Notes: a model not told the origin generated them from the letters alone. A stretch of 64,000 nt of DNA from an uncultured Planctomycetota bacterium (GCA_963845755.1 CAWJTV010000011.1:704001-768000), one strand, 5' to 3'. Shown: positions 52,261 to 64,000, counted from the stretch's first letter. Numbers and translations are program-made.

Positions 52261-54321
52261 ATGTTGACCCCCAAGTGGAGATTCATCGCCCTGGCCCGGG
52301 TGTTCCTTGGCGTCGTCGCGACGAGCGCGAGTTATCTGGCTCCCGCCCTTGCCGTGGACGATGACGCCAACCCGAAGCCGGCTCCCGGGCCGGATGTTCG
52401 TCGTCGGCCGCGTGCTCGACGCGAACGGCAAACCGGTGCCCGGCGCCACGGTCGCGGTCTATGCGCAGCACCTCGCGTGCGGGCCTGGTCCCCGCCTTTT
52501 TTTGTCGATAAGGGGCCAGGTTTCGATCGGCGAACGTCCGCGCCGACGATCTGGGCCGGTTCCGGATCGATGCACCTCGTACGTCATCGTCGCATCATGA
52601 GGCGTTCGGCGCCATCGCCCTGGCGCCCGGTCACGGTATCGGCTGGGTCGACCTCGATCCCGACGACGATCAGCCCACTGCCGACATCACACTCCGGCCA
52701 GAGCACGTGATCCATGGGCGGCTCTTCGACCTGCAAGGCCAGCCTGTCTCGAATGTCACGCTCGCGGTCGCGATCGATCCGTCGATCCAAGTCCACCGGA
52801 TCCGGCCGCGGTCCCGGAGACCGCTCGAGGGTGTTCGTCTATTCGTATACCAAAATCAATGATCTTCCGGCCTGGCCCCGGCCGGTGATGAGCGACTCCG
52901 AGGGCCGCTTCACCCTGCGCGGCCTGGGCCGGGGCCTGGATGCGCTCCTCACCGTCCATCACCCACGATTCGCCCTCCAGAGAATTGAGATCGAGCCGGA
53001 TGACCACTTCGAAATCGAAGCCGAGTGACGGCGGCGCTGATGCCGGCTCAGATCCTGACCGGACGCGTGACCTATGCCGACACGGGCGAGGGAGTTCCTC
53101 ATGCCCCGCTTGAGGTGATGGCCAGTCACGGGAGAGCCGTCATCCCCTCCGCATTCGAGACCGACGACCAGGGCCGGTTCCGCGTGGATCCTCCGCCGGC
53201 AGACCGCGTCTTCGGCGTCCTGGCCCATCCCCCGAGAGGACAGCCCTATCTCATCGCCCGGGGACGTGTCGATTGGCCCAAGGGCGCGCTCGAGCAATCC
53301 CTGGACCTCGCCTTGCCGCGTGGCGTCTTGATCCACGGCACGGTCACTGAGGAGGGCTCCGGCAAGCCCGTCGCGGGCGCGACCGTCGACTTCGGCGCAT
53401 GGGCGGCGGAGCTTGGCGGAAAGCGGAAGCATCATCCTCGATACCGCAGCCGATGGCTCATTTCAACTCGGAGCGATGCTCGGCCCGGGTTGCCTCTTCA
53501 TCCAGGGGCCCAGCGACGATTACGTGTTCCAGTCCATCGACACTCAGATGGTTAATGCAGGCCGGCCCGGCGGCGGCCGGCTCTACTCGCACGCCCATCA
53601 GTTGCTCGACCTGAAACCCGGTGTCGCCAGTCAGGAAGTCCACGTCGTGCTTCGCCGCGGCGCGACGGTGACCGGCCAGGTCGTCGGTCCCGATGGCCAG
53701 CCCGTCCGGGAGGCCTGGATCTTCAGCCGGGTCGTTCTCGATCCGAGACAAGTTCCGTGGCAGCGCTGGGCGGCTCGCCACCACGGCAAGGTGCACAACG
53801 GTCGTTTCGAAATCCACGGGCTCGACCGCGATACCGAGGTCCCCGTCTACTTCCTGGAACCGAATCGCAAGCTGGGCGGCACGGTGAATCTCTCGGGTAA
53901 GTCCGCGACCGGCGAGCCGGCCACCGTCCGCCTCAAGCCCTGCGGCGCGGCCAAGGCGCGAGTCGTCGGCCCCGTCGGCAAGCCGGTTGCGGGGCGGCTC
54001 CCGGGCACGATCATCACCATGGTCGTCACCCCCGGCCCACCCTCCTACGGTTTCCCGTCAGAACAGGCCAGCCTTCTCTCCGCCGACGAGGCCGCCCTGA
54101 ACCAGGTGGATACGGTCAACTACCCGGCCGAGGTCACGACTGATGCCGACGGCCGCATCACGCTCCCGGTCCTGATCCCCGGCGCGACGTATCGATTCAT
54201 CGACTACACCATGGCCGTCCGCGGCCAGACCGGCCCGACGGTCCGCAAGGAGTTCACCGTCAAGCCCGGCGAGACGCTCGATCTGGGCGACGTGCGGATC
54301 GAGAAGCCCCAATCGCCATGA
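52261..54321 (+). pseudogene. sigma-less copy of the ECF ectodomain (copy A), with several frameshifts
   Basis: Starts at the hydrophobic segment; MFVVGRVLD, PAWPRP, WPKGA, QGPSDDY and EFTVKPGETLDLGD. Confidence 0.75.
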
Positions 54322-54372
54322 ATTCTTCGAACCGTCTCGCCGAACCGCACGTCGTGACCTCGGTCGTGAGAC

Positions 54373-54479
54373 CGTAGTTCGGACGGGGACCTCCAACCTC
54401 GCACGTCAGTGCGATTCACCCAGCCCCTCAGATCGGGCTGACGCCCGAGGCTGGTGGGCTGCGCCCCGTCCGAACCACG
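54373..54479. repeat. REP-like inverted repeat starting with CGTAG
   Basis: cgtagttcggacgggg ... ccccgtccgaaccacg. Confidence 0.7.
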
Positions 54480-54527
54480 CACTCACCTGCCTGGTCGCGG
54501 GCAGGAGCCTCTACCAAGAACACAACT

Positions 54528-54559
54528 CGGGATAAAATATCGGACACCGGGGCAGTATC
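54528..54559 (+). promoter_or_regulatory. putative ECF promoter CGGGATAAA-N16-CAGTATC (copy B)
   Basis: Same boxes and spacing at 57536 and 61639. Confidence 0.7.
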
Positions 54560-54605
54560 CGCCAAGGGATGAGTTCTAACGAGGTTCCGGCAAGGGCCCA
54601 CGAGC

Positions 54606-61182: not shown

Positions 61183-61556
61183 TGCGTTTCAAGACCGACG
61201 AGAATCTGCCGGTGAAGGTGGCCGAGTTGCTGCGTCAGTACCAGCACGATGCCCTCAGCGTGCAGGACCAGCAGATGGCCGGCCAGGGCGATCCCCAGGT
61301 CGCGAGCGTCTGTCAGGCGGAAGGCCGCGCCCTCGTGACGTGCGACCTTGACTTCTCCGACATTCGGGCCGACCCGCCGGAGGATTATCACGGGATCATC
61401 GTCTTGCGTCCGGCGGTCCAGAGCGACTCGTCCTTGCTACGGTTGGTGAACCGCGCTATACCTTTGATCGATGTGGAACGCCTGGATGGGTGCATCTGGG
61501 TCGTCAACGACCATCGCGTCCGGATCCGGGGGACAGGGTCGCCGGGCACTCCCTGA
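61182..61556 (+). CDS. DUF5615 / Mut7-C-like PIN-like toxin
   Basis: [22 protein letters not shown] and HGIIVLR; TGATG coupling with the DUF433 gene. Confidence 0.88.
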   Translation: MRFKTDENLPVKVAELLRQYQHDALSVQDQQMAGQGDPQVASVCQAEGRALVTCDLDFSDIRADPPEDYHGIIVLRPAVQSDSSLLRLVNRAIPLIDVERLDGCIWVVNDHRVRIRGTGSPGTP

Positions 61557-61638
61557 GCGTCCGCCGGTGTTTTCGGAATGAGCTGGGACAAGACGACCGG
61601 CACTGCCGGACTGAGAATCTCCGAGAATCGTAACCACC

Positions 61639-61670
61639 CGGGATAAAATGTCGGACACCGGGGCAGTATC
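61639..61670 (+). promoter_or_regulatory. putative ECF promoter CGGGATAAA-N16-CAGTATC (copy D)
   Basis: The 78-bp leader is nearly identical to that of copy B. Confidence 0.7.
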
Positions 61671-61716
61671 CGCCAAGGGATGAGTTCTAACGAGGTTCCG
61701 GCAAGGGCCCACGAGC

Positions 61717-64000
61717 ATGGCGCATGCGGCATCCGGCTTCGTCGTCCGGCAAATCGGCTCGCTCTTCGACGGCGGTTCCGTCGCGGGCTTGTCCGACCGG
61801 CAGCTCCTCGACCGGTTCATCGCGCGCCGCGATGCCGCCGCCGAGTCCGCCTTCGCCGCACTCGTGGCCCGGCACGGGCCGATGGTCCTGCACGTCTGCC
61901 GGCAGCTCCTGGGCGATCACCAGCATGCCGAGGACGCCTTCCAGGCCGTCTTCCTCGTGCTGGCCCGCCGGGCGCACACGGTTCGCGATCCCGATCGGCT
62001 GAGCAACTGGCTGTATGGGGTGGCGCTCCGAACCGCTCGCAAGGCCAGGGTCCGGCTCGCCCGCCGGCGCAAGAACGAGAGCGATCACGCCAGGAGCGGC
62101 CCGGACCCGGGATCGGGCCTCCCGGCCGATCAGTCGGCGATGGCTCGCGAGCAGGCCGAGATCCTCCACGACGAGATCGATCGACTCCCCAAGTCGTTCC
62201 GCCTGCCCGTGGTGCTCTGCTACTTCGAAGGGCTCGCGCTCGACGAGGCGGCGCAACGGCTGCGCTGGCCCGAGGGCACGTTCCGCAGTCGACTCGCCCG
62301 GGCGCGCGACAAGCTCCGACGCGGCCTCACCCGCCGCGGCGTCGTCTTGCCCGCCGCCGCACTCGCCGCGGTTCTCGAAGCTCGGCCCGCCTCAGCCTCC
62401 GTCCCATCCCCCCTGCGTGACATGACGACCCGGGCCGCGATCACGTTCGCGGCCGGAGATGCCGTCGCACCCGCCGCGACAGCCCTGGCCCGGGAGGTGC
62501 TCAGATCCATGCTGATCCACAAGCTGAAGCTCACCGTGCTGGCCCTGATCTTCCTCGGCGCCGTCGCCGGCGGCGCGGGCTTCGTCGGCCGGGCATCGGG
62601 ACGTCAGGCTGGAAAGCCTGATCTACGGGAACGTCAGGCTGGAAAGCCTGACCTACGGGAACGTCAGGCTGGAGAGCCTGACCTACGGCCGGCGCCCGGC
62701 CGGATGTTCGTCGCCGGCCGCGTGCTCGACGCGAACGGAAAGCCGGTGCCCGGTGCCACCGTCGCGGCCTATGCGATGAACCTGGCAGCCGGACAGACCC
62801 CCTACCGGAGGGCCCAGATCCCGATCGGGGATGCTCGCGCCGACGCCTCGGGCCGATTCCGAATCGATGCGCCGCGGATATCCTCGTCGCGGTATGATGT
62901 CTTCGGCGCCATTGCCCTGGCGCCCGGCCACGGCGCCGGCTGGGTCGTGCTCGATCTCGACGATGAGCAGCCCACCGGCGACATCACGCTCCCACCGGAG
63001 CAAATCATCCACGGGCGACTGTTCGACCTGCAAGGCCGGCCCGTCCCGGACGTCACGCTCGCGACGGCGAATCTCCACCGTCTCCTCCCGCCGGCCCCGG
63101 CCGGGGCTCGCGGGCGATTCGGGCGATTCGATGGCATCATGTATGGGTATACCCATATCAATGATTTTCCCGCCTGGCCCAAACCGATGATCACTGACGC
63201 CGAGGGCCGCTTCACCCTGCGCGGGCTGGGCCGCGGCTTTGGTTCGACCCTCACCGTCCATCACCCGCGGTTCGCCCTCCAGCGCGTCGAGGTCGAGGCG
63301 GATGGCACGTCGGAATCGAAGGCGATGACCGCGGCGCTGATGCCGGCCCAGATCGTCACCGGGCGCGTGACCTATGCCGACACCGGCGCGGGCGTGCCTC
63401 ATGCCCCGCTCGAGGTGTTGCCCAGACTTGGGAGACCGCGTCACCCTCTCCGAATTCAAGACCGACGACTCGGGCCGGTTCCGCGTGAATCCCCCGCCCG
63501 CGGACCGCACCGTCACCATCATCGCCTTTGCCCCTGAGGGACAGCCCTACCTCACCGCCACCGTGAGCATCGAGTGGCCCAAGGGCGCGCTCGAGCAATC
63601 TCTCGACCTCGCCCTCCCGCGCGGCGTCCTGATCCACGGCACGGTCACCGAGGAGGGCTCCGGCAAGCCCGTCCCGGGGGCGACCATCGCGTTCCTCGAG
63701 CGGGGGCGGCGGGGCTCCCGGCTCGGCGGGAATGTCTACATCGAGACCGCGGCCGACGGCTCATTTCGATTCGGGGTCAAGCCCAGCCCCGGCTGCCTCT
63801 TCATCGCGGGCCCCGCCGACGATTACGTGTCCCAGGCCATCGGCTCCCGGATGGTCCACGAAGGCCAGCCGGGCGGCGAACGGATGTACGCGCACGCCTA
63901 CCGCTTGCTCGACCTGAAGCCGGGCATCGACAGCCAGGAAGTCCCCGTCGTGCTCCGCCGCGGCGCGACGGTGACCGGCCAGGTCGTCGGACCCGATGGA
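61717..64000 (+). CDS. ECF sigma factor with C-terminal extension (copy D); frameshift near 63430; runs off the window
   Basis: Sigma part nearly identical to copy B; ectodomain closer to copies A and C. Confidence 0.88.
62601..62690 (+). repeat. three 30-bp palindromic REP-like units in frame within copy D (RQAGKPDLRE)
   Basis: acgtcaggctggaaagcctgacctacggga x3; hairpin tcaggct-ggaa-agcctga. Confidence 0.9.

Follow-up and report, generated by a model that had tools for sequence, protein, structure and literature searches.

An eight-gene tandem array encoding putative membrane-anchored extracytoplasmic function sigma factors in an uncultured planctomycete

Layout of the array and architecture of its copies

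We analysed a 64,000-nucleotide (nt) stretch of DNA from an uncultured Planctomycetota bacterium (GCA_963845755.1, CAWJTV010000011.1:704001-768000; in our numbering G000:C11:704001-768000, where G000 is the source genome), hereafter the window, which ends in a tandem array of genes for sigma factors of the extracytoplasmic function (ECF) type that carry large transmembrane (TM) extensions. Based on a listing of open reading frames (ORFs) and on tblastn with one of the copies, B, the array comprises eight homologous same-strand genes (A-H), arranged in tandem on the plus strand from 52192 to ~78182; positions beyond 64000 are given as window-equivalent coordinates. An earlier note on this DNA had described four collinear homologous copies. 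These (A-D) are present on the plus strand, with tblastn E-values among copies down to 0, far beyond chance, but they are only half of the array, because the window stops inside D and the array overruns its end by ~14 kb, to window-equivalent 78182.

Copy B (54606-57476) is the sole uninterrupted gene, an ORF of 956 amino acids (aa). Copies C (57960-60872) and D (61717 to ~64611, cut by the window end) also have the full architecture and are interrupted by 3-5 and two frame breaks, respectively, one of those in D lying within the window at ~63436. Farther on, copies E (65362-68331), F (68653-71509), G (~71672-74505) and H (75270-78182) were located with tblastn. Copy A (52192-54321) was recovered as tblastn pieces in three frames and consists of a short N-terminus, a TM helix and a beta-sandwich ectodomain, with a reading frame interrupted 5-7 times. 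It has no sigma domain: its frameshift-aware alignment spans B aa 220-955, with seven events and no in-frame stop. The earlier description of an array of ECF sigma factors therefore holds, within the window, only for B-D. Sigma-less copies recur in a congeneric genome, G001 (array copies a1-h1), namely a1, c1 and d1; c1 and d1 are the closest relatives of A, and no sigma-like sequence was found upstream of either. The spacers between array copies measure 152-845 nt and contain only toxin-antitoxin (TA)-like genes or no recognisable gene, although divergent anti-sigma domains could escape detection.

The domain order and topology of a membrane-anchored sigma factor are established by the sequence of B. 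Its N-terminal part matches Sigma70_r2 (PF04542, 41 bits, cut-off 24, aa 49-113), two sigma4 models (PF08281, 39.7 bits, cut-off 25.7; PF04545, 38 bits, cut-off 24.1; about aa 148-200) and the ECF superfamily model TIGR02937 (81.3 bits, cut-off 42.9). Neither Sigma70_r1 nor Sigma70_r3 is among the ten Pfam families reported for B, and no anti-sigma domain was found in it by Pfam. Sigma4 is followed by a conserved linker of ~65 aa, a single strong hydrophobic window (aa 272-290) with K and R residues on its N-terminal side, and an ectodomain of 660 aa (~aa 296-956). On the evidence of Pfam, TIGR02937 and the hydrophobic window, the earlier note was right that sigma is tethered through the membrane: B-type copies are ECF-type sigma factors (sigma2/sigma4) joined by one TM helix to a large extracytoplasmic domain. 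The same combination of sigma factor and extension in one ORF recurs in external homologues of ~940-990 aa with sigma Pfam domains. As a putative ECF sigma factor, such a protein would bind core RNA polymerase and direct promoter-specific transcription.

The ectodomain of B matches CarboxypepD_reg (PF13620) in four stretches (100.5 bits, cut-off 32.3, E 6.8e-29) and, partially, the beta-sandwich of Dioxygenase_C (profile positions 19-94 of 182), beyond which Pfam reports no enzymatic domain in it. AlphaFold2, supplied with an 84-sequence alignment, predicts aa 296-956 as a compact, nearly all-beta body with a mean predicted local distance difference test (pLDDT) of 91.4 and a predicted TM-score (pTM) of 0.89. 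Foldseek searches of the PDB returned generic tandem beta-sandwich proteins (pilins, CnaB repeats and MG domains), and a global fold match was rejected because TMq was at most 0.16. In a separate model of aa 1-305, sigma2 and sigma4 were predicted confidently (sigma2 helices at pLDDT 85-97); an anti-sigma-like docking of the linker on sigma2/sigma4, considered as a candidate, was not confident.

An old ectodomain family, its variation and its constraint

Judging from sequence comparisons, the paralogue family is old and widespread in Isosphaeraceae-type planctomycetes and soil metagenomes. At least 861 homologues of the B ectodomain were found at E≤1e-3 among 8000 scored candidates; the best 120 external homologues are all at least 49% identical to it, and source names point to Singulisphaera and Isosphaeraceae. 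Sigma-fused (~940-990 aa) and sigma-less (~610-790 aa) forms both occur, ~30 of these best 120 being of the shorter kind without sigma Pfam domains, and many ectodomain residues, including W, H, C and D/E positions, are conserved family-wide. Some of the shorter forms come from short contigs and could be fragments. In a midpoint-rooted FastTree phylogeny of 99 ectodomains (support values not displayed), array members fall into at least six lineages interleaved with external proteins: E groups with b1; A, C and D with c1, d1 and e1; F and G with h1; a1, g1 and f1 each form a separate lineage; and H stands on its own. B is 67% identical to its best external proteins and at most 55% identical to any array mate. 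Among 40 other genomes sampled from the same order, eight had a match at E≤1e-40, with one to four copies each and some tandem pairs; eight-copy arrays were seen only in G000 and G001.

Relatives are also scattered through G000. About 80 loci match the sigma/linker/TM part of B at E≤1e-10, with identities over aa 1-300 that are mostly 35-50%, and ~12 loci outside the array match the ectodomain partly or wholly. An intact ectodomain-family locus (54% identical) lies at C12:160627-163482, and multi-piece ectodomain matches were found at C1:109946-118773 and C41:548546-554261. A distant single-copy ectodomain paralogue without a sigma domain (42165-44003, plus strand; 34% aa identity to B aa 304-951) sits 8 kb upstream of the array and has a G001 counterpart at 82.8% nt identity.

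The earlier note had emphasized near-invariant blocks that alternate, across the four ectodomains, with loops differing in sequence and length. Frame-corrected A, C and D contain all six quoted blocks, and B contains five of the six (it reads DFTV... instead of the quoted EFTV...), but the blocks are often altered elsewhere, with 76, 27, 20, 67, 55 and 13 exact matches in 83 external homologues; among the eight array copies, 26% of ectodomain columns are invariant. The quoted loop strings were likewise found in ORF translations, but the loops differ little in length: by hand count on the alignments, the segment from the conserved Y to IG comprises ~17-21 aa in A-D. The apparent shortness of the loop in C (RSLAQRRAP) is an artefact, because a frameshift at ~59052-59061 cuts it; read through, it is about as long as that of D. 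An out-of-frame origin was also considered for A's quoted loop and rejected: this loop is in frame, with A's frameshift just past IG at ~52535, and only the loop of C is truncated in this way. Two smaller features were noted in the first variable loop. In A, its coding sequence contains a GC-rich hairpin with a T7 run (52479-52505) that resembles a terminator; the T run is probably genuine coding sequence, because the LFL that it encodes also occurs in e1 of G001. An RGD tripeptide (PGRGDAF in B, aa 353-355; SGRGDPY in F and G) is probably due to chance.

This alternation of framework and loop reflects the tandem repeat structure of the ectodomain. A pattern search identified five repeat openings of the form G-x-V-x-D..G-x-P in B (aa 327, 428, 543, 635 and 749), and a variable segment begins 16-26 residues after each motif start; a sixth, A-initial repeat near aa 840 seems, by eye, to behave alike. 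Using an alignment of B with the 83 external family members, we defined 11 variable segments totalling 114 residues (entropy ~2.3-2.8 bits, gap fraction ≤0.11, few insertions), which include both loops flagged in the earlier note (aa 353-362 and 449-476). Several of them match dips in model confidence (blocks at pLDDT 60-85). Mean ectodomain entropy is equal in predicted strands and loops (1.46 vs 1.44, p=0.64), and the per-site entropy of the eight array copies tracks that of the external family (Spearman 0.76, or 0.81 for the 16 copies of both genomes). The sites that vary within the array are the same as those that vary across the family in other genomes, and the variation is not special to the array.

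Selection was assessed on codon alignments derived from frameshift-aware alignments, with four codons masked on each side of every break; omega (dN/dS) values are Nei-Gojobori pairwise counts on error-prone sequences with recombination present. Across copies, aa identity is 74-98% in the sigma domain and 48-81% in the ectodomain, with omega of 0.12-0.39 and 0.38-0.54, respectively. Seven flanking orthologue pairs between G000 and G001 gave omega of 0.075-0.447 (median 0.22; dS 0.27-0.45) and the single-copy distant paralogue gave 0.42. Within the ectodomain, pooled omega is 0.75 for the 114 variable-class residues (0.50-0.98 per pair) against 0.36 for framework residues, which points to relaxed constraint in the variable segments and gives no hint of positive selection. 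A sliding-window scan (43 windows, 30 codons each), pooled over the independent closest pairs h1-F, d1-C and c1-A, found pN/pS above 1 only at aa 686-715 (1.27, from 40 nonsynonymous and 10 synonymous differences). These values indicate purifying selection overall, with variable segments that are relaxed and near-neutral. Of the checks that the earlier note had proposed for its idea of a diversifying receptor repertoire, neither per-site entropy nor dN/dS spoke in favour of that idea.

Module exchange, array turnover and frame breaks

Identity matrices of the sigma domain and the ectodomain are discordant. Sigma domains are 98% identical between C and F, 90% between B and D and 74-83% for the remaining pairs; ectodomains are 81% identical between F and G, 67-69% among A, C and D, and 48-59% for the remaining pairs, with B and D at 51%. 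The C-F tract (57479-58620, plus strand) covers the intergenic region and the sigma part to ~aa 220 at 92-100% nt identity per 50-nt window, with one ~166-nt indel inside; third-codon positions are 95-100% identical over aa 1-190, and beyond the tract identity drops to 64-88%. The B-D module (54517-55460, plus strand) spans the upstream element, sigma, linker and TM helix over ~940 nt at ~90% nt identity, with flanks that are <45% identical on both sides. F and G share ~750 nt (aa ~200-450) at 96-100% identity, including the first loop. In addition, d1 of G001 lacks a sigma domain though it is the closest relative of C's ectodomain (82% nt), which indicates that N-terminal modules swap between members. 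The near-identical sigma domains of C-F and B-D are thus gene-conversion or module-exchange tracts and not a constant output module. What stands of the near-constant sigma output proposed earlier is that sigma is more conserved than the ectodomain; outside the conversion tracts, its copies are only 74-83% identical.

The ~166 nt in question (57735-57900) lie in C's upstream spacer; the spacer before F is otherwise nearly identical but lacks them. In one soil-metagenome contig, 57734 is directly followed by 57901, exactly this segment being absent. CTCTGTG-rich repeats are present in the B-C and E-F spacers.

The element upstream of B (GGGATAAAAT, spacer, GCAGTATC) lies at 54529-54559 on the plus strand, ~50-80 nt before the ATG, and recurs before D at 61640-61670 (plus strand). 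Aligned over 12 copies from the two genomes, it is ~45 nt long and is found before B, D, E, G, H and five G001 copies. A strict form of the pattern has nine matches in the genome, four of them before B, D, E and H, against two in a reversed-genome control; as a regulon search, it returned only array copies and five scattered sites. Within the element lies an imperfect inverted repeat that was classed, on the minus strand, as resembling a terminator, and a scan for sigma-70-type promoters found no promoter-like site. The element may be a promoter, an operator or a 5' hairpin.

G001, whose RpoC is 97.5% identical to that of G000, carries a syntenic eight-copy array. The flanks were compared by blastn against a 130-kb region of G001: to the right of the array, from window-equivalent 78486 onwards, the genomes are collinear with 87-88.6% nt identity, and to its left long blocks align at 79-88%. 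The left flank is inverted and rearranged between the genomes (window 18970-45600 against G001:C13:338000-349866). Best matches to the G000 array, in nt identity, are F (84.1%) and G (82.8%) for h1, C (82.1%) for d1, A (78.8%) for c1, D (76.9%) for e1, E (75.4%) for b1, and E (72.8%) and B (71.7%) for f1; g1 (~70-74%) and a1 (66-67%) have no clear partner, and the ectodomain of H has none in the G001 array.

Frameshift-aware alignment placed 37 breaks in A and C-H (2-9 per broken copy) and none in B. Across the 7460 reconstructed array codons there is no in-frame stop, and conservation is unchanged on either side of each break. In the same assembly (completeness 87.9%, 49 contigs), rpoB is split once, rpoC has 2-3 breaks and seven flanking genes show 13 events in 3833 codons. 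All three single-base indels in near-identical tracts are G/C homopolymer length changes, and C and F carry different indels at neighbouring sites of their 98%-identical tract. Indel errors in the assembly probably account for most or all of the frame breaks. The public reads listed consisted of one run, a soil metagenome with 0.07 of the sampled words, with no RNA data set among them, and its contigs were 151-205 nt long; five of the eight soil-metagenome pieces listed had 0-1 differences, and none spans a frame break. One soil contig, ~90% alike, has an extra G at 58207, the first break of C, but it comes from a relative or paralogue and decides nothing. As a general caution, frameshifts in error-prone long-read assemblies can mimic both pseudogenes and 'length-variable loops'.

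TA-like gene pairs occupy several of the array spacers. A DUF433 and DUF5615 (PIN-like) pair lies between C and D (60946-61556, plus strand; Pfam E 2.2e-23 and 5.3e-23), its ORFs overlapping by 4 nt, and Phd/YefM-like and ParE-like pairs lie on the minus strand between D and E (window-equivalent 64640-65249) and between G and H (window-equivalent 74534-75137). The D-E and G-H pairs are homologous to each other and so were apparently part of the duplicated unit. The minus-strand region immediately upstream of the array (47663-51850) encodes an ECF sigma factor (220 aa), then a Ser/Thr protein kinase and a TPR region; the last two seem to be a single kinase-TM-TPR gene that two frameshifts have split. 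The whole resembles an ECF/kinase-type pair with no relation to the array. The genome has 42 matches to RVT_1, of which those nearest on the contig (C11:193693 and C11:964807) are separated from the array (756-782 kb) by 180 kb or more, and we accordingly rejected the array as a target of a diversity-generating retroelement (DGR). Many of these matches belong to identical multi-copy sets; the one at C11:964807-968079 lies ~3 kb from a family paralogue (C11:971162-974653) that is ~190 kb from the array.

Weighing of explanations and relation to known systems

We consider it likely that the window holds the first half of a tandem array in which eight genes encode one-component ECF sigma factors anchored in the membrane, drawn from an old family and forming no hypervariable repertoire. 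The array represents a paralogue family of an ordinary kind that has expanded in its lineage; its size and its module-level gene conversion make it notable. A full copy would comprise a cytoplasmic sigma2/sigma4 part, the ~65-aa linker, a single TM helix in N-in/C-out orientation and the 660-aa extracytoplasmic domain, the latter predicted to fold as about six tandem transthyretin-like (CarboxypepD_reg) beta-sandwich repeats in one compact body. Each repeat would retain the opening G-x-V-x-D..G-x-P-V..A-x-V motif, followed by a variable segment 16-26 residues from the motif start. The array probably arose by tandem duplication within the old paralogue family and would have evolved by birth and death together with gene conversion that swaps whole N-terminal modules (upstream element, sigma and TM helix). 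The ectodomain may bind an extracytoplasmic ligand or partner, and the signal would free or activate the tethered sigma factor, most likely by regulated proteolysis as for sigma/anti-sigma pairs; alternatively, sigma may act at the membrane. Separate copies might then sense separate cues.

Several observations weigh against this reading. The ectodomain omega (0.4-0.5) is about twice the flanking-gene median (0.22), and a few positively selected sites may exist, given that the values are pairwise counts on error-prone sequence. Only three or four of the eight copies have a partner at flank-like divergence (h1-F, d1-C and c1-A), the flanks being at 83-88%; the array thus changes its content more quickly than the genes beside it, in the manner of birth-and-death evolution. 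Breaks occur about once per 0.6 kb in the array against once per 2-2.7 kb in rpoB/rpoC; the array's density is ~1.5 times that of the flanking genes, a comparison in which the errors of both genomes add up. Moreover, rpoC of G001 is intact, yet its array has 43 events. With this higher density and an intact G001 rpoC, some copies could be real pseudogenes. As regards the proposed signalling step, the model of aa 1-305 reached a pTM of only 0.40, with the linker at pLDDT 44-60, and Pfam finds no anti-sigma domain.

Rapid turnover could also mean that the array is a lineage-specific sensor repertoire in the 13-14 Mb genomes of this genus, in which module conversion adaptively recombines sigma and ectodomain; the swapped cassettes of upstream element, sigma and TM helix would then include cases in which sigma-less members become sigma-fused. 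We regard this as unlikely; if true, it would be a bacterial analogue of birth-and-death receptor multigene families. A stronger proposal, that of the earlier note, is that the exposed ectodomain loops are positively selected or actively diversified, in the manner of antigen receptors, while a constant sigma output is kept. The higher omega of variable segments relative to framework, the one sliding window above 1, the strongly different array content of the two congeneric genomes, the presence of segmental gene conversion and the coincidence of variable segments with dips in model confidence are what it would lead one to expect. However, no window or segment class has omega convincingly above 1, the same sites vary family-wide, variability is moderate (entropy peaks of ~2.6-2.8 bits, few indels), and the copies belong to old lineages that have relatives outside the array. 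Conversion makes copies more alike, F and G being identical across the first loop; sigma is not constant outside such tracts; and no reverse transcriptase lies within ~180 kb, which leaves no DGR. Nor are most full copies silent cassettes, since they come with a start codon and an upstream element of their own. Such diversification therefore seems very unlikely, and an old paralogue family under purifying selection, which the earlier note itself had named as the refuting outcome, is essentially what we found.

If the frameshifts were real, the array would largely be a pseudogene graveyard in which only B functions and high omega reflects relaxed selection on dead copies. Seven of the eight copies are broken, with 2-9 events each, at a density above that of rpoB/rpoC; the G001 array is broken too, although its rpoC is intact, and copy A lost, or never had, a sigma domain. 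We nevertheless think it quite unlikely, given that rpoB, rpoC and flanking genes of an assembly of only 87.9% completeness in 49 contigs show the same kind of breaks, that stops are absent from the reconstructed codons and conservation continues across each break, and that omega is well below 1 between broken copies (0.39 for d1-C, 0.45 for c1-A); the homopolymer nature of all three indels in near-identical tracts and the differing indels of C and F argue in the same direction. Finally, the ectodomain could be a structural or enzymatic envelope protein and no sensor, with sigma-less forms ancestral and fusion serving only to sequester sigma or to couple its activity to the assembly of the envelope. 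Sigma-less forms are indeed common (A, a1, c1, d1, the single-copy paralogue and ~30 of the 120 best homologues), the ectodomain is one compact, well-ordered predicted body and many of its residues, including W, H, C and D/E, are conserved family-wide; but apart from the partial Dioxygenase_C match it has no enzymatic Pfam domain, its structural neighbours are adhesin, pilin and MG-type beta-sandwiches, and some of the short sigma-less forms may be fragments. This is the least probable of the explanations considered.

The array invites comparison with several known systems. Cellulolytic clostridia possess multiple SigI/RsgI sigma/anti-sigma pairs that share one mechanism and differ in their extracytoplasmic sensing domains. 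Both systems have several paralogous sigma systems per genome, but in SigI/RsgI sigma and sensor are separate proteins and the sensors belong to several families (carbohydrate-binding modules), whereas here they are fused and the ectodomains form one family. In activators of the ToxR/CadC type, a cytoplasmic DNA-directed domain is similarly tethered by one TM helix to a periplasmic sensor domain; there it is a winged-helix activator, whereas here it is a sigma factor, which must bind core RNA polymerase. With DGRs and cassette-based antigenic variation the array shares repeated homologous segments with variable stretches and segmental gene conversion; unlike them, it has no reverse transcriptase within ~180 kb, is not hypervariable, consists mostly of complete genes and shows omega below 1.

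Closest to home, the main text of a study of planctomycetal ECFs reports conserved sigma2/sigma4, far less conserved C-terminal extensions and recent duplications, with discordant trees for sigma and extension and a sigma module that seems to move on its own (Pinto & da Fonseca 2020, PMC7671368). The array resembles these ECFs in its conserved sigma core and divergent, discordant extensions, but here the extensions all belong to one homologous family and the genes to one tandem array, and discordance stems from conversion or module-exchange tracts between neighbours rather than from sigma modules inserted into unrelated genes; that main text nowhere uses the word 'carboxypeptidase'. In the part of an ECF classification considered here, ECF41/42 and ECF263 (the latter with TM helices) are among the groups in which a fused C-terminal extension exerts the regulation (Casas-Pastor et al. 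2021, PMC7826278). They share with the array an ECF core and a putative regulatory extension in one polypeptide, with no obvious adjacent anti-sigma gene seen; the characterised extensions described there are soluble (SnoaL-like, TPR) or short Cys-rich tails, in contrast to the TM helix and 660-aa beta-sandwich body found here. A full-text search of a limited literature set returned no paper on a combined ECF/CarboxypepD_reg architecture, its matches all concerning type IX secretion, and 'ECF01-Gob' received only a passing mention in it.

For planctomycetes, the array offers a concrete local mechanism, tandem duplication with conversion of N-terminal modules, for the known pattern of conserved sigma cores with divergent extensions. 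A large uncharacterised family also emerges, in which sigma factors are tethered to the membrane and the ectodomain is confidently predicted to consist of six beta-sandwich repeats; the family could be tested as a model for the activation of a membrane-anchored sigma factor.

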